64,000 bases of DNA from a virus. Taxonomy: Duplodnaviria; Caudoviricetes. The notes beneath the pieces were generated by a model. It did no database searches and was not told where the DNA came from. It saw only the letters and a list, made by a program, of their open reading frames with translations. The stretch covers positions 1 to 64,000 of the IMG/VR virus record IMGVR_UViG_3300033076_001357; one strand, 5' to 3'. This document shows, piece by piece, positions 5,250-16,034 of this stretch; within the stretch, counting starts at the first letter, position 1; every line of letters begins with the position of its first letter. The position numbers were made by a program, and so were the translations under genes.

Positions 5250-5305
5250 CAGAACCTCCGGGTAGGGTCGGGGCGGGAGCGCTGCGCCCCCGCCGTTATA
5301 CTACC

Positions 5306-5335
5306 AGTATACCACGGGTGTTTCCCGGGGGACAA
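5306..5335 (-). promoter_or_regulatory. Promoter P9 (TTGTCC-18-TATACT)
   Basis: Consensus match. Confidence 0.8.
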
Positions 5336-6160: not shown

Positions 6161-6445
6161 TCAGGGGGCCGACTCGACCTGAACGTTCGAGGGCACCCAG
6201 AACGACCAGCTGAGGCTGGCCCACCCGACGTGGTGGTGGTCCGGGTTGCTGACCTGAGAGGCGCTCTCGACGTCGCCGAGCAGCTCCGTAGGCACCAGGT
6301 ACCTGGCGAAAGCCGACCTCGACTTGTCCGTCGCTTCGACGAGAACCGTCGTCAGCCAGCTGTCCGACTGCGACACGAAACCGATCAGTGACCGTCCGTG
6401 GTAGGAGAAGCTGACGGTCTCGCCCTTCTTGAACTCAGTCTTCAC
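6161..6445 (-). CDS. Small SH3-like beta-barrel protein
   Basis: FKKGETVSF...LIGFVS; AAGGAG RBS. Confidence 0.6.
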   Translation of the reverse strand: MKTEFKKGETVSFSYHGRSLIGFVSQSDSWLTTVLVEATDKSRSAFARYLVPTELLGDVESASQVSNPDHHHVGWASLSWSFWVPSNVQVESAP

Positions 6446-6480
6446 GCGGCGTAGTCTCCTTACTTCGAGTGGTGATGGAG

Positions 6481-6657
6481 TCAGTCGACCTTGGTGACGC
6501 TGGACGGGTGCCAGATGTCACGTCGGGCGAACGGCGCGTTACGCTTCGCTGACTCGTCGTCGAGGATGATCTCGACGCCAAGGTCAGTGTCGGACTCGAC
6601 CACGCCCGACAACCGGCCCTCATCGATGTGAGCTTTGTCACCCTTGGTGAACTTCAC
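6481..6657 (-). CDS. Small SH3/KOW-like protein VKFTKGDKAHID...
   Basis: CAGGAGG RBS, GTG start, under promoter P11. Confidence 0.6.
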   Translation of the reverse strand: MKFTKGDKAHIDEGRLSGVVESDTDLGVEIILDDESAKRNAPFARRDIWHPSSVTKVD

Positions 6658-6686
6658 GGGGGTCCTCCTGTGTCTCTGGTACCGCC

Positions 6687-6716
6687 ATTCTAGCACAACG
6701 GTTTCCCGCCGGGAAA
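6687..6716 (-). promoter_or_regulatory. Promoter P11 (TTTCCC-18-TAGAAT)
   Basis: Consensus spacer (GAAAC, TG) and -10. Confidence 0.65.
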
Positions 6717-6893
6717 ATGGCTTCAAGGCGGGTCCTCCGCGCCCGGGCCACGGGCTCGGGAAAGCGCCGCAGGCCCGGTTGACGGCAGACACGGACCCGA
6801 GGGCCGGGACGGGGTCTTCCGCCGCCTGAGAGAGCCGCCCCGGTACTGAGCGCCGGAGACCCCCTGTACGGTTGAGGAAGACCCCGTCCTGTG

Positions 6894-8288
6894 TCACGAC
6901 GGGGTATCCCAGGACAGCGGCGTCCTGGTCCGGTACTCCAGAGACTCTATCTGCAGCCACAGGTGGCCGGTTCGCGGCTTCAGCTGAAGCGTCATCCGGG
7001 CCCAGTTGGGCCGTTCCAGCGACCCGACCCCGCTGAACTCGGCGCTCCGGGCGGTTCGTGGCAGCGTCCACTTCAGACCCTCGCCCGTTTCCTCGGCTGC
7101 GGCCACCGCTCGCCTCACCAGCCGCCACGCGGTCTCGGTCTCGACCCCCTGGTCCTGCAGCCAGGTCAGCGCCGCCGCAGCTTCGGCTCGGTTCCTGGCC
7201 GTCTCCAGGTTCCGCTCCATCGCCTCCTTGTCTATTCCCATCTGCCGTATCAGGTTGGTACACTTGATGGCGGCCCACTGTGCCAGGGTTGTTGCGGTCG
7301 GCACCACCACTCGCTCCACCGAGCTGTGGCTTATGTCCCGTTCACCCCACAACACCACCCCACTTTGCACAGTTGACCCCATTCCCTTTACTATGTTATA
7401 CAGCCCTATCATTTGCTCTGCGGTTACAGGGTTTGACTTATGGGGCATCGAGCTTGAGCCCCATTGACTGCACTGGTCGAAGTTTTCCCTTATTTCGTCG
7501 ATGCCGCTCTGGGCTCCCAGCCTCACCTCGTTGGCCACCGCTGCCGCTGCCGCCGCCACGCCCTCGCAGCCCCACACCATCTCGGCCACCAGGTCCCGGC
7601 TCACCACCTGCAGGCTGCTGTCCGCCGCCCTCATCCCCAGCAGCTTGGCGAATTCCAGCTCTTCCCCCCGGCTTATTCTCTTGTAGTCTCCCACCGGTCC
7701 GCTGAGCTTCACCCTCCCCACTTCCCTTGTCGCCCGTGCAAGGCGCTGGGTCGCCCTCTCGGCCATCAGCGCCTTGTCCGCCAGCCAGTGGCCCAGCGTC
7801 GACTCCTCCGCCCACTGGCCGTGGGTCCGGGCCACCCGCCGGGTCTCGCGGTTCTTCATCGCCGCCCTGGCCAGCTCCCCCGTCAGCTCCCACGCCGCCC
7901 GGGTCACCAGCTTCCCCGCCAGCCGCCACCTTATCGCGTTGGCGCTGTCCACCAGGTCGCTTGAGGTCATCCCCCGGTGCACCGCCGCCAGCGCCAGCGC
8001 CCCCGCGCGGCCTCCCCCCGCGCGGCCTCCCCCCGCGCGGCCTTCGGCCGCGAGGGCGATGTTCCTGCGCCAGCAGTTCAGGAACGCCACCACGTCGTGA
8101 CGGGTCCGGGCCTCCTCGTCGGCCACCTCCCGCTCGGTCGGCACCGCCGCCGTTCTCATCACTTCCAGCGCCTTCTCGTCCAGCCCCTGGGCCTGGGCCG
8201 CCGCCGTCTCCACCCTCGCCCACAGCCGGTACTGGGCTCGGGTCGACCACAGCTCTTCCATCTCGGACGTCTGGTACCTGGATATCAC
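6894..8288 (-). CDS. purB: Adenylosuccinate lyase (fumarase/ASL superfamily), phage-encoded
   Basis: MISRY..EM..LWS; TRHDVVAF; HRGMTSSD; RTHGQ; KLSGPVG; QVVSRD; GSSSMPHKSNP; ERDISHSSVER. Confidence 0.93.
   Translation of the reverse strand: MISRYQTSEMEELWSTRAQYRLWARVETAAAQAQGLDEKALEVMRTAAVPTEREVADEEARTRHDVVAFLNCWRRNIALAAEGRAGGGRAGGGRAGALALAAVHRGMTSSDLVDSANAIRWRLAGKLVTRAAWELTGELARAAMKNRETRRVARTHGQWAEESTLGHWLADKALMAERATQRLARATREVGRVKLSGPVGDYKRISRGEELEFAKLLGMRAADSSLQVVSRDLVAEMVWGCEGVAAAAAAVANEVRLGAQSGIDEIRENFDQCSQWGSSSMPHKSNPVTAEQMIGLYNIVKGMGSTVQSGVVLWGERDISHSSVERVVVPTATTLAQWAAIKCTNLIRQMGIDKEAMERNLETARNRAEAAAALTWLQDQGVETETAWRLVRRAVAAAEETGEGLKWTLPRTARSAEFSGVGSLERPNWARMTLQLKPRTGHLWLQIESLEYRTRTPLSWDTPS
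8001..8043. repeat. 15-bp tandem repeat (~3 units) inside purB encoding GRAGG repeats
   Basis: ccccgcgcggcctcc units; in frame. Confidence 0.8.
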
Positions 8289-8361
8289 AGTTTCCCTCTT
8301 CTCTTCTCTCTCCTGGCTACGCCGACGGCCCCGGGGTTCTCCCCCGGGGCCGTCGTCCTTC

Positions 8362-9291
8362 TCAGTTCCGGCCGCTGGATCCGAAGCCGTTGCTACCGCG
8401 CGGCTTGGGCCGCACCCGGCCCCACGCCGCCTTCCCCGCCCCCACGGCGGGCAGCAGCACCAGCTGCACCAGCCGGTCGCCCTCCTTCACCATGACGCCC
8501 GTCTTGGTGGGGTTGTGGACGCTGGCGAACAGCTCGCCGCTGTATCCTTCGTCGATCACTCCCGGCGTCACGTCCAGCCCGAGCTTGAACTTGGTGGAGC
8601 TGCGGCCGGTCACCAGCCCCCAGTACCCGTCGGGGATGTCCACCGCCACCCCGCAGTTGACGTAGGTGGTCTTGCCGGGGGGCAGCCACGTGTCCTTCGA
8701 CGTGAACAGGTCGAAGCCCGCGTCGGTCTCGTAGGCCCTCTCGGGCAGCCGGGCGTTCTCCGCCTTCTTCTCGAACACGATAGCGCCCCCGCGCGCGGGC
8801 TCGACCGCTTCCTTCAGCGCCCTGGCGAACGCGGTTCCCCGGTCGGCCGCCGTCGAGCCCCTGCGGGGCGCGGGCTCGGCCAGCTCCCGCACCGTGTCGC
8901 GCAGCCACTGCGCTCCCGACCGCACCCCGGGGCCGTCCAGCGGCACCTCGCGGAAGTTGTCGTTCATCTTCCAGTTGTCGATCAGCATGCTGACTTCCAG
9001 GTCGGTGGCCAGCGCCACCGGCTTACCGTTGTCCACGGCCCACTGGATCTCGATCGGCACGCCGATGCTGGGCACGCCATGCTTCAGCACCGCCATCACT
9101 CCGTCGGCCTCCCGCAGCGCCAGCCGGTTGATGGCCTGGCCGATACCGGCCGGGTCGCCGCCGCTGTCGAACGCCAGGGCGGGCCGGAACACCGTGGCTC
9201 CCGCCTCGACCAGCGTGGCGCTGGCCAGCTCGGCCATCCGCTTGGACCTCTCGTCGGCCTGGTCTATCGGCTGCGCCAGGTAGATCAACAT
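8362..9291 (-). CDS. dut: Fusion: NDT/DNPH1(Rcl)-like N-glycosidase plus trimeric dUTPase
   Basis: N-term IYLAQP...ADGV...SIGVPIEIQWA...SMLI; C-term AGFDL, GRSS, GVIDEGYSGE, GDRLVQL, RGSNGFGSSG; start at MLIYL with AAGGA RBS. Confidence 0.85.
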   Translation of the reverse strand: MLIYLAQPIDQADERSKRMAELASATLVEAGATVFRPALAFDSGGDPAGIGQAINRLALREADGVMAVLKHGVPSIGVPIEIQWAVDNGKPVALATDLEVSMLIDNWKMNDNFREVPLDGPGVRSGAQWLRDTVRELAEPAPRRGSTAADRGTAFARALKEAVEPARGGAIVFEKKAENARLPERAYETDAGFDLFTSKDTWLPPGKTTYVNCGVAVDIPDGYWGLVTGRSSTKFKLGLDVTPGVIDEGYSGELFASVHNPTKTGVMVKEGDRLVQLVLLPAVGAGKAAWGRVRPKPRGSNGFGSSGRN

Positions 9292-9368
9292 CGGTAACCG
9301 TCCTTTCGGCTCCCGCCTTCGGCGGGGGTGAGGGGGGCTCCCGCCTTCGGCGGCGGGAGCCGGGGGGG

Positions 9369-9809
9369 TCAGCGGGTCCGGGCGCCGACCGCGCCGACCA
9401 CGGCGGCCACCGCTTCGAAGGTGTGGTGCCACGCCTGGTCCAGGCAGTACGCGCCGTTCATCCCGTGGTCGGCGAGCCGGACGAACACGCCCTTGCCGGT
9501 CAGGTCGGCCAGCCTCTTCAGCGGCGTCCGCCGGTCGGCCACGTAGTGGGTCACCGCCGACAGCGCCAGCGCGGCGGTCAGCGCCCTACCGTTCAGCCGG
9601 ATCCCGCTGGCCCGGCTGGCGGCCATCAGCGCCACCGCCTGGGTGGCGGTGTAGCTGGCGACGTGGGCTGCGCACGCCTTCCGGCCGTCGCCGCCGTTGG
9701 TGCCCTTCACCCGGGCCTGCCGGTCGGTCTGGATCCAGTGGTCGGCCAGGTCGGCGGCCGTCCTGAGCGCCGCGTAGTTCAGCGCCGTCACTCCGGGTTC
9801 CACGGTCAT
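9369..9809 (-). CDS. DUF3307-like His-rich membrane protein
   Basis: ADHWIQTD.QA..KG; HVASYT; SAVTHYVADRR; DQAWHH. Confidence 0.7.
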   Translation of the reverse strand: MTVEPGVTALNYAALRTAADLADHWIQTDRQARVKGTNGGDGRKACAAHVASYTATQAVALMAASRASGIRLNGRALTAALALSAVTHYVADRRTPLKRLADLTGKGVFVRLADHGMNGAYCLDQAWHHTFEAVAAVVGAVGARTR

Positions 9810-9869
9810 CGTATCTCGTCCTTCGGGGGTCGGGGGCTGCCGCCGGGGCTTTCCCCCGCGACAACCCCC

Positions 9870-9899
9870 ATTGTACCACGGAAGTTCCCTACTGGGAAA
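9870..9899 (-). promoter_or_regulatory. Promoter P12 (TTTCCC-18-TACAAT) upstream of DUF3307-dut fusion-purB
   Basis: Consensus match. Confidence 0.65.
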
Positions 9900-10280
9900 C
9901 TAGCCCTCGTCGTCCGGCCAGCCGCCCGCCGCCCGGATCCGACGGCTCATCATCCCGTACGCGACCAGATCGGTCAGCGTGTCCTCCTTCGGCCGCTCCC
10001 CGCGCATCACCGCGTCGGTCCACCTCTCCATCTTCTGGACCGCGTTGATCCAGCAGCCCAGTTCCTGGGCCTCCTCGCTGCTGATCTCTTCCCGGCCGCT
10101 GAGCCGGGCGATCTTGCGGCCCAGCTGCTCCAGCGAGTTCGACCCGTAGGTGACCGCCTTCACGGCCACCATCCCGATGTCGTCGGTGGCCGTGCTCAGC
10201 CACCACTCGCGCAGCCCCTCGGCCCTCGCCGCGCGCGCGGCGAGGGCCTCACCGCTCAGCACCCATCTTTCGTGAGACAT
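9900..10280 (-). CDS. All-alpha NTP pyrophosphatase-like protein (MazG/MazZ/DUF1599-like)
   Basis: KAVTYG...QKMERW...EDTLTDLVAYGMM pattern; adjacent to purZ. Confidence 0.65.
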   Translation of the reverse strand: MSHERWVLSGEALAARAARAEGLREWWLSTATDDIGMVAVKAVTYGSNSLEQLGRKIARLSGREEISSEEAQELGCWINAVQKMERWTDAVMRGERPKEDTLTDLVAYGMMSRRIRAAGGWPDDEG

Positions 10281-10304
10281 CGTGTGACGCGTCCTCTCTC
10301 TGAT

Positions 10305-11432
10305 CTAGATGAACACTCCGGTCACCGGGCTGGTGCCGACGAACCGCACCCGGGCCCCGGTCTCGGTCTCCCGCTCGTCCAGCCACTCGGTGGCCCCTTC
10401 GCTCAGCTCCCGCAGCCCCCTGGCCCCCATGACCTCGGGGAACTGCTGGTCCAGCATGGTCACCGCCAGGTTGACCCTGCTGCCCCCGTTCGCCTGCACC
10501 GCCCGCCTCACCAGCTCGGAGTCCCAGGCGCCGACCCGCCGGACCTTCTGGGTAACTGTGGTGCGTTCCTCCTTCAGCCCCAGCTCCCCCCAGCTGGTCT
10601 CCCCCTTCATCGGCCCGCTGTTGCCCGCCACCCGGATCGGTCGGGTCCGGCACGCCAGCCACACCTCGAACTCTCCCACCGAGGGGTGCCAGGGGCTCAG
10701 TCCTGCCTGGGCCAGGAAGTCGATGGCACGGCAGTCGCCCGACGTGCTGTACGGGTACTCCCCAGCGTGCAGCCCCAGACCGAACCCCTGGGTGCCCTCG
10801 ATCAGCACCGTGGCTCCGTCCTCCAGCGCCCCGTACATCAGTCCGGCCGTGTCCGCCTCCCCCCGGACCACCTGGCCCCACAGCTTGGCCGTCCTCATCA
10901 CCCGGTCGGCCCGGGCCGCTCCGATCCCCTTGGCGGTGGACCCGAGACGGGCGGTCATCCCCAGCTCCCGCTCCTGGAGGACGTGCTTGTGGTCCAGCCA
11001 GGTGGCCTGACTGTCGACCGTCAGCCGCTCGGCGACCCGGTACCCGGCGCTGGACAGCGCCGCCAGCTCCTCGTTCAGCGTGTTGATGCTGACCTCGCTC
11101 CCGGCGGCGATCACCAGCCGGGCCGTCTCGTTGGCCACCGCCGCCACCGGCACCTGGCGAAGCTTCCACGGGTGGCCGATGAATTCGCCGTTGAAGTAGT
11201 GGTCGTCGACCGGCTCGCTTCCCCACAGTCCCTCGGCGGGGACGTGGCCGATCGCGGCCCCACACCACTTCGGGCACCGGCCGTGGACGATGTGGCCAGC
11301 GTTCGGGCCACCGACCCTCACTCCCACCGTCGCGCCGCTGACGCGGTCGGGGTTCAGCAGCTGGGCGCTGACGTGGCCCTTACCGCAGCTTCCGTACATC
11401 GCGTCGCTGACGACGATCAGCCTACCGGACAT
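10305..11432 (-). CDS. purZ: PurZ0-type N6-succino-2-amino-2'-deoxyadenylate synthase (PurA paralog)
   Basis: DAMYGSCGKG (Ser at the PurA catalytic Asp position), GPNAGH, GSTAKGIG, EGTQG, YPYSTS, RVAGNSGP, ERTTVTQKVRRVG, TMLD. Confidence 0.9.
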   Translation of the reverse strand: MSGRLIVVSDAMYGSCGKGHVSAQLLNPDRVSGATVGVRVGGPNAGHIVHGRCPKWCGAAIGHVPAEGLWGSEPVDDHYFNGEFIGHPWKLRQVPVAAVANETARLVIAAGSEVSINTLNEELAALSSAGYRVAERLTVDSQATWLDHKHVLQERELGMTARLGSTAKGIGAARADRVMRTAKLWGQVVRGEADTAGLMYGALEDGATVLIEGTQGFGLGLHAGEYPYSTSGDCRAIDFLAQAGLSPWHPSVGEFEVWLACRTRPIRVAGNSGPMKGETSWGELGLKEERTTVTQKVRRVGAWDSELVRRAVQANGGSRVNLAVTMLDQQFPEVMGARGLRELSEGATEWLDERETETGARVRFVGTSPVTGVFI

Positions 11433-11494
11433 TTTTCCTCTTTCCCGTTCTGTGGACGGCCCCCGGGTCCCGCCCGGGACCCGGGGGCGGGGGT

Positions 11495-11683
11495 TCAGCG
11501 GCCCTCGATCAGGGCCAGCGCCTCGGCGTCGTCGGCCGGGACCTGCAGGCCCCGGGGGGTCGGCTTGGTCGTCGGCCGGGGCCGGGGGGTCCCGGTGCGG
11601 GGCCGGGTCAGTGGCGGGTCGGTCTCGGTCCTCATCTCGGGTCCGGGGTCGGGTCCCGGCTTCCTTCCACCGAACAGCGTCAT
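11495..11683 (-). CDS. Small Pro/Thr-rich hypothetical protein
   Basis: GAGG RBS; first gene after promoter P13. Confidence 0.5.
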   Translation of the reverse strand: MTLFGGRKPGPDPGPEMRTETDPPLTRPRTGTPRPRPTTKPTPRGLQVPADDAEALALIEGR

Positions 11684-11713
11684 CGCGGCGGATCCTCTCT
11701 CCGTTGTTACTCC

Positions 11714-11743
11714 ATTATACCACCGGGCTTTCCCCCGGCGCAA
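11714..11743 (-). promoter_or_regulatory. Promoter P13 (TTGCGC-18-TATAAT) upstream of purZ
   Basis: Perfect -10 with TG extension. Confidence 0.8.
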
Positions 11744-12026
11744 GTGGCGCCCAGACCAGCTCGGTCGACCCCCCGTGGCCGTGGATGGCCACCACGTGGT
11801 CCACGGTCTCGAACATCACGGTGGTAGGAGTGTCGCTGAGCCACCTCATCACCACTGTACCGTCCGTGAACTCCACGCCCTCCGCCACCCGCCCGGTCCC
11901 GCTGACCCGGCTGACGTCGACCTTGCGGTCCAGGTAGAACAGCCGGGGCCTGGACCCCTCCGACCGCCCCACCGCCTGGTTCATCCGGTTCGCGTCGTCT
12001 TCCGACAGGATCTCGCTCATCCTCAC
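11715..12026 (-). CDS. Conserved actinophage hypothetical protein
   Basis: DVSRVSGTGRVAEGVEFTDG...W...IHGHGGST pattern. Confidence 0.75.
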   Translation of the reverse strand: MRMSEILSEDDANRMNQAVGRSEGSRPRLFYLDRKVDVSRVSGTGRVAEGVEFTDGTVVMRWLSDTPTTVMFETVDHVVAIHGHGGSTELVWAPLAPGESPVV

Positions 12027-12093
12027 CGCTTTCTGTTCCTCTCACACGCCCGGGCCCCCTCCGCCGTGACTGGCGGAGGGGGCCCGGTAGGGG

Positions 12094-12339
12094 TCAGTGG
12101 ATGCGTCCGGTGCGCTTCCACCGGTCCAGCGCTTCCACCGCGCGGTCCAGGTCCTCGATCATCAGATCGCAGTCCGGGTCGCTCCGGCAGCCGGGGTAGG
12201 TCTGCAGGGCCCGCTTGGCGGTGACCGCCCGGCCGATCACCGTCCGGACCTCGGCCAGCGCCCGGCTGGTCTGCCTTCCCCGGGGGTGGTCGGAGTCGAC
12301 CGGCTCCGGCTCCTCGTTATCGGCGTTGATCGTTACCAC
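12094..12339 (-). CDS. Hypothetical protein
   Basis: AAGGAAGGAG RBS, GTG start. Confidence 0.55.
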   Translation of the reverse strand: MVTINADNEEPEPVDSDHPRGRQTSRALAEVRTVIGRAVTAKRALQTYPGCRSDPDCDLMIEDLDRAVEALDRWKRTGRIH

Positions 12340-12353
12340 TCCTTCCTTCTCGT

Positions 12354-12830
12354 TCAGTACCCCCGGCCCTTCAGGGCCAGTCGCCTGAGATGGTACAGAC
12401 CCAGACACTCCGAGTCCTTGCAGTGCGAGCCGTGGCCGTACGACTTCCACGACCTCAGCGGCTTGACGGGAGGCTTGAACTCGGCCAGCCGGTACAGCGC
12501 TTTGTGGTGGCTGGCCTGGTAGCCGATGAACGGCACCCCGGCCCGTCGGCACAGGTGACGCATCACCCCGATCAGCTCGCACACCTCGAAGGTCGACCCC
12601 ATCTGGTTCCGGTTCACCTCGGCGCCCGGGTACAGCATGAACACCTCGTAGACTACGAAGTCTATCTGTCGCAGGGTCATGGCCTCAACCAGGTAGTCGA
12701 CAAACTGGGCCGGGGCCATCTCCTGGCTGCGGGTAGGTTCCGCTCCGCGCCACCAGGTCAGCCCCACGTGGACCGCTCCCGGGTCCACGCTCAGCCAGTC
12801 CCCCGCTGGAGGGTAGCTGTCATCCGTCAT
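12354..12830 (-). CDS. RuvC-like Holliday junction resolvase
   Basis: LSVDPG..HVG; VVYE; ELIGVM; HCKDS (RNase H fold acidic residues). Confidence 0.75.
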   Translation of the reverse strand: MTDDSYPPAGDWLSVDPGAVHVGLTWWRGAEPTRSQEMAPAQFVDYLVEAMTLRQIDFVVYEVFMLYPGAEVNRNQMGSTFEVCELIGVMRHLCRRAGVPFIGYQASHHKALYRLAEFKPPVKPLRSWKSYGHGSHCKDSECLGLYHLRRLALKGRGY

Positions 12831-13733: not shown

Positions 13734-16034
13734 TCACTTGTCGGCGGACCAGCGCTCGGGCTCGATGCCGAAGTGCATGGTCCTTCCGCGCACTCCGAAG
13801 TACCGCTCGAACACCTCGTTGCCGATCGCGGACACCCGCTGGGCCTGGGCCCAGCCTTCCGGCGTGTCAGGGTGACGGGTCACCAGCGAGTCGTGGATCT
13901 GCAGCAGCAGGCATCCCGGCAGCTCCCGCTCGACCCGAGTCATCCAGGGGATCATCGCCCTGGCGAGGTTGCCCTGGATGACCTGGTTGACGGCACTGTT
14001 CGTCTTCTCGTTGACCGCGTACCACCGCCGCCAGCCGTCCAGCATCGTCAGGTAGCCGGGACCCCCCTGCCACCTGGTCACCTTCCACTCCGCCTGCTCC
14101 GCCATCACCTTGAATTCGGGGTAGGTGTCGAAGAAGTTGGCGATGGCCTCCCTGATCTCGTTCATCGACATCTTCTGGCCAGAGGCCGCCTCCACCTGCT
14201 CCTTGATGGCCATCACGCCGCCGCCGTACAGGATGCCGAAGGTGGCCCGCTTGGCCGCGTTCCTGAAGTCCTTGAAGAGCGGATGGCTCTCGTCGATCTT
14301 GAAGAACGCCTTCGTGTTCATCCCGTGCAGGTCGAGCCCGGCGTCCAGCGCGTCCCACAGCGACGTGACCCCCGCGATCACCGTCACCACCCGCAGCTCA
14401 CCGGTGGCCAGGTCGTGCTCCGCGTGGAAGTACCCCGGCTCGTTACCGATGAACGCTCGGACCGGCGTGGCCCCATCCGGGATCAGCCGACCGTGAGGTA
14501 TCGCCTGGCACTGCCAGCGACCCACCGCCAGCCGCCCCGACTTCGTGCCACCGGCGGCGTCCGAGGGACGGTCGAAGTCACCCTTGCACTGTTTGTACCG
14601 GGTCCTGATGCGACCGTCCCTACCGGTCCTCATCGCCCAGCCGGTGTACCACTTCGAGTCCGAGTTGCGGTTCTTGGTCCACCGCATCAGCTCGCTGGCC
14701 CACGGCACGCCGTCTTCCACCAGCCGCCTCAGTTCAACGATGTCGAGCCTGGGTTCCCTGGTCTTCTCGGTGCGGTCCAGCGGCTCCAGCCCCAGCCCGT
14801 TTTTACCCCCGCACTCCTCGCAGTCCCTGTCGCAGAAGAACACGCTCCAGTCACCGGCCGCCAGACTCCGGGCCCGGCTGCAGCCGGGCCCGAAGAAGAA
14901 CCTCTTGGCCTGGGCCAGCTTGGACGGATCGAACGGCATCTTCGCCGCCAGCTCGCGGTTGCGCTCCCGCAGCTTCCGCCCCTCGGCCAGCGAGGGCTCG
15001 ACGTCGTACCGCACCCCCCGGCGTTCCATCCGGTACAGGGTGGTACGCAGTTCCATCTCGTCGTCGTACAGCCTCCAGAAGTTCGGCAGCACCGCCCCCT
15101 CCTCCGCCAGCGCGTCCTGGTACTCGGCCAGCCGGAGGGTCAGGTTGGTGTCCTTGGCCGCGTACCGCTTCATCGCCGCCACGGGGTGCCACATCAGCAG
15201 GTCGTACCGCTTGGTCATCCGCACGCCGACCTTGGCCAGCTCCTTGGCCAGCTCCTGGGCCTCCGACCCCTCGTCCTCGCCCCACAGGCGCTTGGCCGTC
15301 TTCTTCAGCGCGGCCGGTTCCAGCGGGTCGATCAGCTGCTTCTGGACCACCAGGGTGCACCGGATCCGCCTCCGTACGTTACCGGGGACGGCCAGCGGCT
15401 CGCCGCTGGGCTCCATCATGTGGAGCCGCTGCGGCTCGCCCAGCCGCCAGGTGCCCGGCTCGCTGTCCGGGTCCCACGCCGCGAATCCCTCGGGCACGCC
15501 CGGGTCGCCACCGGCGCCCGCCCGGAGACCCGCCGCGAACATGGGCATGTCGTGGATGCTGTTGTGCATCACCAGGTTGTCCCGCCGGTCCAGCCAGCCG
15601 ATCAGCGCGGCGTAGTCGCTGGAGGGCAGGTTGACGACGTCCGCCGGGGTGAACGTGGTCCCCAGCAGCTTGGACATCGCCGCCAGGATGCGGGCCTGCT
15701 CCGTCTCGTCGATGACCGCGAAGGTGGCATGTCCGGTCTCGGGGTCGATGTCGGGCCGACCCGGCTTGCCGATCACCGGCCCCTGGTCGAACTGCCAGGC
15801 GTGGTCGGTAATCTCGCCCTCCACCCACCCCCCCTCATCGTCCGGAACCGGCTCGCGGTAGCTGACCGACACCACCGAGATCCTGGCCTCGGGCTGGGGA
15901 GGGTTGTTACCGCTCTTGAACGGCTCCCCGTCCCGGTACAGTCCGGACCCCTCGGTGTCCACGCTGACGAACCACCCGGGGGGCAGCTCCGGCAGCTCCA
16001 CGTCACCCACAACGGTAACGGGCAGCGTGCTCAT
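13734..16034 (-). CDS. polA: Family A DNA polymerase with 3'-5' exonuclease
   Basis: Exo VDTEG, HNSIHD, YAAKD; pol motif A HDLATGELR, motif B RNAAKRATFGILYGGG, motif C QIHDS. Confidence 0.92.
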   Translation of the reverse strand: MSTLPVTVVGDVELPELPPGWFVSVDTEGSGLYRDGEPFKSGNNPPQPEARISVVSVSYREPVPDDEGGWVEGEITDHAWQFDQGPVIGKPGRPDIDPETGHATFAVIDETEQARILAAMSKLLGTTFTPADVVNLPSSDYAALIGWLDRRDNLVMHNSIHDMPMFAAGLRAGAGGDPGVPEGFAAWDPDSEPGTWRLGEPQRLHMMEPSGEPLAVPGNVRRRIRCTLVVQKQLIDPLEPAALKKTAKRLWGEDEGSEAQELAKELAKVGVRMTKRYDLLMWHPVAAMKRYAAKDTNLTLRLAEYQDALAEEGAVLPNFWRLYDDEMELRTTLYRMERRGVRYDVEPSLAEGRKLRERNRELAAKMPFDPSKLAQAKRFFFGPGCSRARSLAAGDWSVFFCDRDCEECGGKNGLGLEPLDRTEKTREPRLDIVELRRLVEDGVPWASELMRWTKNRNSDSKWYTGWAMRTGRDGRIRTRYKQCKGDFDRPSDAAGGTKSGRLAVGRWQCQAIPHGRLIPDGATPVRAFIGNEPGYFHAEHDLATGELRVVTVIAGVTSLWDALDAGLDLHGMNTKAFFKIDESHPLFKDFRNAAKRATFGILYGGGVMAIKEQVEAASGQKMSMNEIREAIANFFDTYPEFKVMAEQAEWKVTRWQGGPGYLTMLDGWRRWYAVNEKTNSAVNQVIQGNLARAMIPWMTRVERELPGCLLLQIHDSLVTRHPDTPEGWAQAQRVSAIGNEVFERYFGVRGRTMHFGIEPERWSADK

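Follow-up and report, generated by a model that had tools for sequence, protein, structure and literature searches.

The DNA considered here is the first 64,000 nucleotides (the window) of the 85,119-bp record of an uncultivated tailed phage (IMG/VR IMGVR_UViG_3300033076_001357; Caudoviricetes; about 67% G+C; 92% complete by CheckV). On its minus strand, at 6894-11432, it carries five open reading frames (ORFs) arranged head to tail, all with the high G+C content at third codon positions (GC3) that is typical of real genes. In coding order they specify a PurZ0-type synthetase, a 126-residue helical protein, a DUF3307-related protein, a DmtZ-DutZ fusion and a PurB-like lyase. An earlier note on this DNA had placed five ORFs here, all of which are present, and had described them as an apparently self-contained and possibly unreported pathway for the Z base, 2-aminoadenine. 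We think it very probable, judging from sequence comparisons, that the cluster forms the nucleotide-pool module of a siphophage with a Z genome of PurZ0 type that is distantly related to phage Hiyaa. The cluster is not new in kind, since it matches a described type and Hiyaa, Galactica, Keanu and Spocter carry the same genes, with a PurB-like lyase among them; the residual novelty is a family of helical proteins linked to PurZ0, together with an uncharacterised clade of viral PurB-like lyases.

Against 50,697 phage records, the cluster returned by megablast a sole match of 195 bp in purZ, and thus has no close nucleotide relative among them. Its five contiguous genes lie within 4.5 kb, the most compact order of PurZ0, partner protein, DmtZ-DutZ and PurB among the loci compared.

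Synthetase, fusion enzyme and lyase

The first gene (10305-11432, minus strand) encodes a PurZ0-type N6-succino-2-amino-2'-deoxyadenylate synthase of 375 residues (NF038379, PF00709, PHROG 1211). The protein scores 306.6 bits against NF038379, the NCBIfam model for PurZ, which has a cut-off of 300, and falls far below the cut-off of every PurA equivalog model (for example, 124 bits versus 395 for TIGR00184 purA). In its P-loop, YGSCGKGH, Ser15 occupies the position of the catalytic Asp13 of PurA; this serine is nearly invariant among 37 relatives, and its substitution for Asp13 is the published criterion for PurZ and PurZ0 (PMC12884076). Among solved structures a Gordonia-phage PurZ0, 7VF6, comes closest (250 bits), ahead of the archaeal PurA 2D7U (130 bits) and the PurZ proteins of phiVC8 (85) and S-2L (54). 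In a tree rooted on bacterial-type PurA, the synthetase sits inside the PurZ0 clade with Wayne, Ghobes, Goodman and Hiyaa (SH-like approximate likelihood-ratio test, 99), and the phiVC8 and Acinetobacter PurZ proteins are placed outside it. Within the clade it belongs to a sub-clade (support 98) that also contains Hiyaa-like Streptomyces phages and numerous metagenome contigs, and its best relatives are 55-62% identical. On the strength of the model score, the P-loop and the placement in the tree, the name purZ0 that the gene had been given stands.

We have weighed the possibility that the synthetase and the lyase are an ordinary auxiliary route to AMP (IMP to adenylosuccinate to AMP) in a phage with canonical DNA. 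PurA and PurB do act in consecutive steps of AMP synthesis, the lyase is most like ordinary adenylosuccinate lyases, and some large phages have true purA and purB genes, but the results just given, namely the score above the PurZ cut-off and far below every PurA one, the serine at the Asp13 position (PMC12884076) and the PurZ0-clade placement, all tell against such a role. So does the enzyme encoded between the two genes, whose characterised relatives destroy dATP and dAMP and which would be senseless in a system for adenylate supply. We give this explanation almost no weight.

The aspartate of the T-M-x-D segment (D328) is invariant and aligns with the SMAD of 7VF6. This is the position that we take to be the guanine-binding residue of PurA, and GTP is the likely phosphate donor of the enzyme here. 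The PurZ0 proteins of the Hiyaa clade also have an insert of about 35 residues (11169-11285 in the window, residues about 50-88) that is absent from 7VF6; with its nearly invariant Cys53, Pro54, His78 and His87 (CPxxC...H...H), it could be a small metal-binding knuckle.

The gene that precedes the lyase gene had been described as an N-glycosidase/dUTPase fusion, and an NDT-dUTPase fusion is indeed present, although its start has to be moved. Over the ORF as first drawn (8362-9432), Pfam gives 25 bits for Nuc_deoxyrib_tr, below the cut-off of 28.8, and 89.6 bits for dUTPase (PF00692). The gene most likely begins with the ATG at 9291 and not with the GTG at 9432, because an AAGGA ribosome-binding site precedes the ATG, the N-termini of homologues agree with it, and the 47 codons upstream cross two 28-nt hairpin repeats. 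So read, the gene (8362-9291, minus strand) encodes 309 residues, with an N-terminal domain of nucleoside deoxyribosyltransferase (NDT) fold and a C-terminal domain of trimeric-dUTPase fold (Pfam and PHROG matches), and the 85-kb record contains no other gene of the dUTPase family.

The known counterparts of these domains are DmtZ and DutZ, which in the Arthrobacter phage Wayne form one fusion of 307 residues; in a survey of PurZ0 genomes dutZ was present in 98 of 98, dmtZ in 85 of 98 and the two were fused in 77 of 98 (PMC12884076, Nucleic Acids Res. 2026). DutZ of PurZ0 phages converts dATP, dGTP and dUTP to the monophosphates, and DmtZ cleaves dAMP to adenine, leaving a deoxyribose-5-phosphate that can be transferred onto Z (PMC12884076). 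The protein encoded here shares 35-39% identity with the fusions of Wayne and Hiyaa; compared with the separate proteins of Ghobes, its Dut domain is 48% identical (DutZ) and its NDT domain 34%. The residues of Ghobes DmtZ that mutagenesis supports (the catalytic Tyr6, Asn77 and Glu103, plus Asp12 and Pro57; PMC12884076) are kept as Y4, N55, E81, D10 and P37. We infer that the N-terminal half is a dAMP N-glycosidase/deoxyribose-5-phosphate transferase and the C-terminal half a dATP/dGTP/dUTP diphosphatase. One residue speaks against the first of these assignments: the proposed lid residue of DmtZ, W124 in Ghobes numbering, is Met102 here. The same column holds Val in one metagenome homologue and Trp in Hiyaa, Wayne and L011. 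On the related contig L017 (3947-5269) the dUTPase has as its fusion partner an N-terminal stretch of about 280 residues that has no NDT match in Pfam; this stretch may be another partner domain or a very divergent DmtZ.

The earlier note had seen no DatZ in the window. A search with hidden Markov models extends this observation to the whole 85,119-bp record, where the DatZ-type HD proteins (PF12917, PF13023) gave no match at E<=1, and profile searches of the same record found no DUF550, DUF5664, MazG, guanylate kinase or nucleoside-diphosphate kinase (NDK). That the record is 92% complete by estimate weighs against treating any of these absences as absolute. A genome without DatZ and DUF550 follows the PurZ0 pattern (PMC12884076). 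The distinct mechanism of adenine exclusion that the note had proposed is real, in that an NDT-dUTPase fusion is present and DatZ is not, but it has already been published as DmtZ-DutZ (PMC12884076).

The last gene of the cluster (6894-8288, minus strand) encodes a PurB-like adenylosuccinate lyase of 464 residues (Lyase_1, TIGR00928 and PDB matches), which bears out the claim that this phage encodes a lyase of its own. The protein matches Lyase_1 of Pfam with 96 bits, the catalytic motifs HDV, THGQ and GSSSMPHKSNP are intact, and in the PDB the top-scoring entries are without exception adenylosuccinate lyases (8JBD and 1C3U, about 181 bits). It is 39% identical to Hiyaa gp76 and 31% identical to Ghobes gp36, and it groups with diverse PurB-like proteins of viral contigs that lack PF10397; the cellular actinobacterial enzymes form a separate, tight clade. 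Two results count against a simple assignment as PurB: the score of 244.7 bits against TIGR00928 purB is below the equivalog cut-off of 326.2, and the ADSL_C domain (PF10397) was not detected by Pfam in the lyase or in its nearest viral homologues. For these two reasons its substrate could differ.

It may be, then, that the substrate or role of the phage lyase has drifted, and that conversion of dSMP (N6-succino-2-amino-2'-deoxyadenylate) to dZMP, the deoxyribonucleotide of Z, falls to the host PurB, as in phiVC8, S-2L and SH-Ab 15497. Beyond the two results above, drift would fit the in-frame insertion of a GRAGG repeat, the long branches of the viral radiation, and the fact that most PurZ0 phages (those of Arthrobacter and Microbacterium) manage without a PurB of their own; it fits poorly with catalytic His and Ser motifs that are intact, with the retention of the gene near purZ0 in several divergent phages, and with the placement of the repeat in a loop whose length differs from one PurB to another. 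We consider such drift quite improbable and prefer a lyase that acts on dSMP. The repeat (8000-8043, minus strand; Tandem Repeats Finder, TRF) is a perfect 15-bp unit in 2.9 tandem copies that is in frame and encodes GRAGGGRAGGGRAG; it adds GRAGG units between the HDV and TSSD motifs and looks like a recent in-frame duplication.

Among the phage records that have PurZ0, tblastn finds genes annotated as PurB-like in each of the five from Streptomyces and each of the six from Gordonia, and no match in those from Arthrobacter or Microbacterium. The cultured phages with such an annotation include Streptomyces phages Hiyaa, Galactica, Keanu and Spocter and Gordonia phage Ghobes. The openly searchable literature yielded no paper on a PurB encoded by Z phages, and the viral lyase is annotated but apparently uncharacterised.

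The helical protein encoded after purZ0

Directly after purZ0 (9900-10280, minus strand) lies the gene for an all-helical protein of 126 residues that belongs to an unnamed family, known to us through its predicted structure and its gene linkage. The family has 759 representatives in a library of 1.8 billion proteins, and its distribution follows that of PurZ0. In the phage records its domain was found by tblastn in 31 of the 50,697, from phages of Microbacterium (18), Gordonia (6), Streptomyces (5), Curtobacterium (1) and Micrococcus (1), and these counts are the same, genus by genus, as those of the PurZ matches in actinophages other than those of Arthrobacter. Where both positions were listed (13 records), the domain lay 300-1000 bp downstream of purZ0 in every case, as the C-terminal 105 or so residues of the gene that follows purZ0. 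Six diverse metagenome representatives were sampled as well, and on all five contigs with enough upstream sequence to be informative PurZ is encoded immediately upstream of the helical gene, with a 4-nt overlap of the two genes in three. An identical fusion protein of 485 residues, in which PurZ0 occupies residues 2-348 and the helical domain residues 383-484, is encoded on L023 (794-2251) and L024 (767-2224). These come from two independent assemblies, one from NCBI and one made by Logan from a different run, and the fusion gene is followed there by a 115-residue ORF and then by a dUTPase. We read the 126-residue protein as a dedicated partner of PurZ0.

What this partner does is suggested by the phages that lack it. 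The Arthrobacter PurZ0 phages have no helical domain, and in the same slot they encode DUF5664, with the same layout of a variable N-terminus and a C-terminal domain of about 100 residues; the example is DUF5664-1 (PF18909), gp51 of Wayne. DUF5664 is a dATP/dGTP/dUTP pyrophosphohydrolase (PMC12884076). In the helical family K41, K83, R86, D100 and D104 are invariant and E73 is nearly so, within the motif WW...PKAxEYG...ExxE...K..RW...DxxxD..Y...GGWP, and it is because of these residues that we propose a DUF5664-1-like role. The helical protein most likely serves as a second pyrophosphohydrolase of dATP and dGTP, doing here what DUF5664-1 does in the Arthrobacter phages, and could correspond to one of the "uncharacterized phage proteins" that the published scheme of the pathway shows.

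An AlphaFold2 model of the helical protein, built with 47 relatives, has four helices and a predicted local distance difference test (pLDDT) score of 91. In BFVD, a collection of predicted viral structures, its clear matches are members of its own family, among them uncharacterised proteins of Ghobes and Archimedes, and the next are consistent, weak matches to phage proteins of DUF6378 and DUF1599 ("nucleotide modification associated domain 1", Nmad1). A lead from a protein atlas, DUF1599, agrees with these neighbours; as a family assignment it was dropped, the DUF1599 profile (PF07659) not being found in the genome. No paper giving a function for DUF6378 or DUF1599 was found in the openly searchable literature. 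The sequence of the protein has no match in Pfam, PHROG, NCBIfam or the PDB, and neither phmmer nor a profile of 47 family sequences found anything meaningful among PDB sequences. Pfam searches gave scattered, single, weak matches for the 47 members (including DUF6378 at E 0.066) and, for the extra regions of the longer members, nothing save one PurZ fusion. Foldseek found no PDB structure at E<=0.001, the top entry being iMazG at E of about 2, and VIA-align across the PDB returned generic helical hairpins with Z <= 6.4.

Several results weigh against a pyrophosphohydrolase. The profiles PF03819, PF04447, PF18909 and PF07659 do not match the protein, hhalign gives a probability of 0.1 for the helical family against Wayne gp51, and the conserved acidic residues are only E73, D100 and D104, spaced unlike the ExxE...ExxD of MazG; E70/E73 and D100/D104 are present, the latter in DxxxD spacing. 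The earlier label "MazG-like" is accordingly unproven, there being neither a MazG profile match nor a significant match of the fold.

Alternatively, the protein may not be an enzyme at all, but a structural or regulatory subunit of PurZ0 with a part in, for example, dimerisation, donor choice or coupling to the replisome. Strict adjacency to purZ0, the overlapping stop and start codons of several contigs, the natural fusion with PurZ0 and the lack of a match to any enzyme family are what one would expect of a subunit, and in Ghobes DutZ alone supplies both hydrolase activities (PMC12884076). The invariant charged residues, on the other hand, resemble a ligand or metal site more than an interface, the distribution is complementary to that of DUF5664-1, which is a proven dNTP pyrophosphohydrolase, and the structural neighbours, weak but consistent, are nucleotide-associated domains. 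We regard a purely non-enzymatic subunit as rather unlikely.

Our fuller proposal, which we advance tentatively and as a possibility short of an expectation, is that the 126-residue family is an obligate partner of PurZ0, encoded immediately downstream, sometimes fused to it and mutually exclusive with DUF5664-1. As to its function, it would be a subunit of PurZ0 or else a dATP/dGTP pyrophosphohydrolase of a new fold class. Combined with a PurB-like lyase tuned to dSMP, the family would free the PurZ0 phages of Streptomyces and Gordonia from reliance on the host between dGTP and dZMP. Published work on PurZ0 phages is silent on two components, namely the helical domain after purZ0 in the actinophages other than those of Arthrobacter and the clade of phage PurB-like lyases. 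Both matter for minimal, host-independent gene sets for Z-DNA, and both are directly testable in the cultured relatives Hiyaa and Ghobes.

Comparison with known systems and the proposed pathway

The nearest cultured relatives of this phage are the members of Hiyaavirus (Hiyaa, Galactica, Keanu and Spocter; 81-83 kb), to which the identities are 53-55% for PurZ0, 45-59% for the helical domain, 38-39% for DmtZ-DutZ and 39-40% for the PurB-like lyase. The replication and Z module is syntenic with that of Hiyaa (Pol I, 59%; PurZ, 53%; helicase, 42%; exonuclease, 50%), and the virion genes are not detectably related. In Hiyaa the order runs from Pol I to PurZ0 (gp67), gp68, NDT-Dut (gp69), six small genes and the PurB-like gp76, and the helical domain is the C-terminus of the 419-residue gp68, whereas here it is a separate gene of 126 residues. 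The order PolA ... PurZ - helical protein ... (NDT-)Dut ... PurB also occurs on metagenome contigs of 95.7 and 89 kb. The 95.7-kb contig (ENA ERZ1758400), which stems from a related phage, has a NUDIX gene between those for the helical-domain protein and DUF3307, and GGDEF and Acb5-family genes a few kilobases upstream of purZ0.

More distant are the PurZ0 actinophages Wayne, Ghobes and Archimedes, which share with this phage a synthetase of the PurZ0 clade (PurZ 42-46% identical), an upstream family-A polymerase and DutZ plus DmtZ; neither they nor the present phage have DatZ, MazZ or DUF550. In Wayne DmtZ and DutZ are fused, as here, but Wayne has DUF5664 and this phage has none. Ghobes, like the present phage, has a PurB-like lyase and a helical-domain protein directly after purZ0, but its purB is found on the opposite strand at a distance of about 8 kb, whereas here purB is the last gene of the cluster. 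The genomes of these PurZ0 actinophages measure 44-45 kb, about half the 85 kb found here, and their structural genes are unrelated.

The Z phages phiVC8, S-2L and SH-Ab 15497 follow the same logic (remove dATP, supply dGMP, make dSMP and then dZMP, polymerise dZTP) with a different set of enzymes. They combine PurZ with DatZ and MazZ/DUF550 and use the host PurB; here there is neither an HD-domain DatZ nor a MazZ of MazG type. Their PurZ proteins are of another subfamily, 25-30% identical, and the pocket of the present enzyme appears to be of GTP type. Unlike their clusters, the one described here pairs a phage-encoded lyase with adenine exclusion by enzymes of Dut and NDT folds.

We suggest that the pathway would run as follows. 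PurZ0 would join dGMP and aspartate to give dSMP, with GTP as the likely donor, and the phage PurB-like lyase would remove fumarate from dSMP to give dZMP. Host kinases would raise dZMP to dZTP, which the upstream family-A polymerase would incorporate opposite T, while the DmtZ half of the fusion would cleave dAMP to adenine and might also transfer deoxyribose-5-phosphate onto the free Z base. What the sequence shows is the identity of the genes, their conserved catalytic residues, clade membership and linkage; we infer every activity, as well as the occurrence of Z in the DNA of the virion. The variant Z system outlined in the earlier note, with the steps from dGTP through dGMP and dSMP to dZMP all encoded by the phage, is plausible as a PurZ0 module with its own PurB-like lyase; it is not, however, unreported. 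With at most about 60% identity in PurZ0 to anything on record, the cluster represents a divergent and uncultivated lineage that joins the Z-genome phages of PurZ0 type.

Neighbouring genes, promoter-like sites and hairpins

The remaining gene of the cluster (9369-9809, minus strand) encodes a DUF3307-related helical protein of 146 residues (PHROG 2470, E 7.5e-19). The protein itself has no match to PF11750 (DUF3307) at E<=1; homologues at 50-58% identity carry that domain. Its AlphaFold2 model is a helical bundle (pLDDT 95.7) with no significant PDB neighbour in Foldseek or VIA-align. The gene is in the cluster, as the earlier note had it, but is not specific to Z phages: a homologue occurs in 23 Streptomyces phage records, 19 of them outside the PurZ matches. 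It holds the same slot on L017 and on the 95.7-kb contig, and in Hiyaa lies about 20 kb from the cluster. We think it is probably a lineage-typical passenger gene. The idea that its conserved His and Asp make it an HD-like substitute for DatZ was dropped, having no structural support and facing the frequency of the gene in Streptomyces phages that are not Z phages. Kitasatospora genomes hold many homologues (up to 71% identical), a hint at the host range, and the host is probably Kitasatospora or Streptomyces.

Upstream of the cluster by 2.3 kb is the gene for a family-A DNA polymerase of 766 residues (13734-16034, minus strand; PF00476 E 4.6e-25, PHROG 17), a candidate replicase of DpoZ-1 type. 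Its identity is 68% to the polymerase of contig L016, 59% to the DNA polymerase I of Hiyaa and 28-31% to Pol I of Wayne and Ghobes, and all the PurZ0 loci examined have a PolA gene upstream of purZ0. The interval from the polymerase gene to purZ0 holds genes for two conserved proteins, one of 158 residues (12354-12830) that is 50% identical to Hiyaa gp62 and has a weak PHROG match to a RuvC-like resolvase, and one of 103 residues (11715-12026) of PHROG 7499, as well as a small Pro/Gly-rich ORF of uncertain coding status (11495-11683, minus strand; ORF list, GC3 0.83), which has 62 residues from its ATG or 82 from a TTG at 11743.

Two dedicated promoters had been claimed for the cluster. Two extended -10 promoter-like sites are present as consensus matches, both on the minus strand. 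The first, ahead of the small ORF and purZ0, combines TTGCGC, a 17-nt spacer and TATAAT with an upstream TGG (11712-11745; GGTGGTAYAATGG); the second, inside the cluster before the DUF3307 gene, combines TTCCCA, 17 nt and TACAAT with an upstream TG (9868-9898). That they are "dedicated" is not supported; both belong to a series of seven minus-strand sites with the motif TGGTAYRATGG, all in the first 12 kb of the window (positions include 967, 2616, 3519, 5293-5316, 9868 and 11712). The window holds eight matches to the motif versus 2.0 expected, and the series may be an early or middle promoter set of the phage.

No T-tract terminator was called in 6400-12400. GC-rich, perfect stem-loops without a T tract occupy three gaps of the cluster, at 9308-9367, 8324-8354 and 11440-11490, the last between the small ORF and purZ0. 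The first of these, between the DUF3307 gene and dmtZ-dutZ, consists of two copies of a 28-nt hairpin-forming repeat on the minus strand (TRF period 28, 2.1 copies). The second, read from the sequence on the minus strand between dmtZ-dutZ and purB, has a perfect 13-bp stem and is terminator-like or attenuator-like; because this GC-rich hairpin separates the two genes, co-transcription of purB with the fusion gene is not assured. The stem-loops of the cluster may be attenuators or elements for RNA processing or stability.

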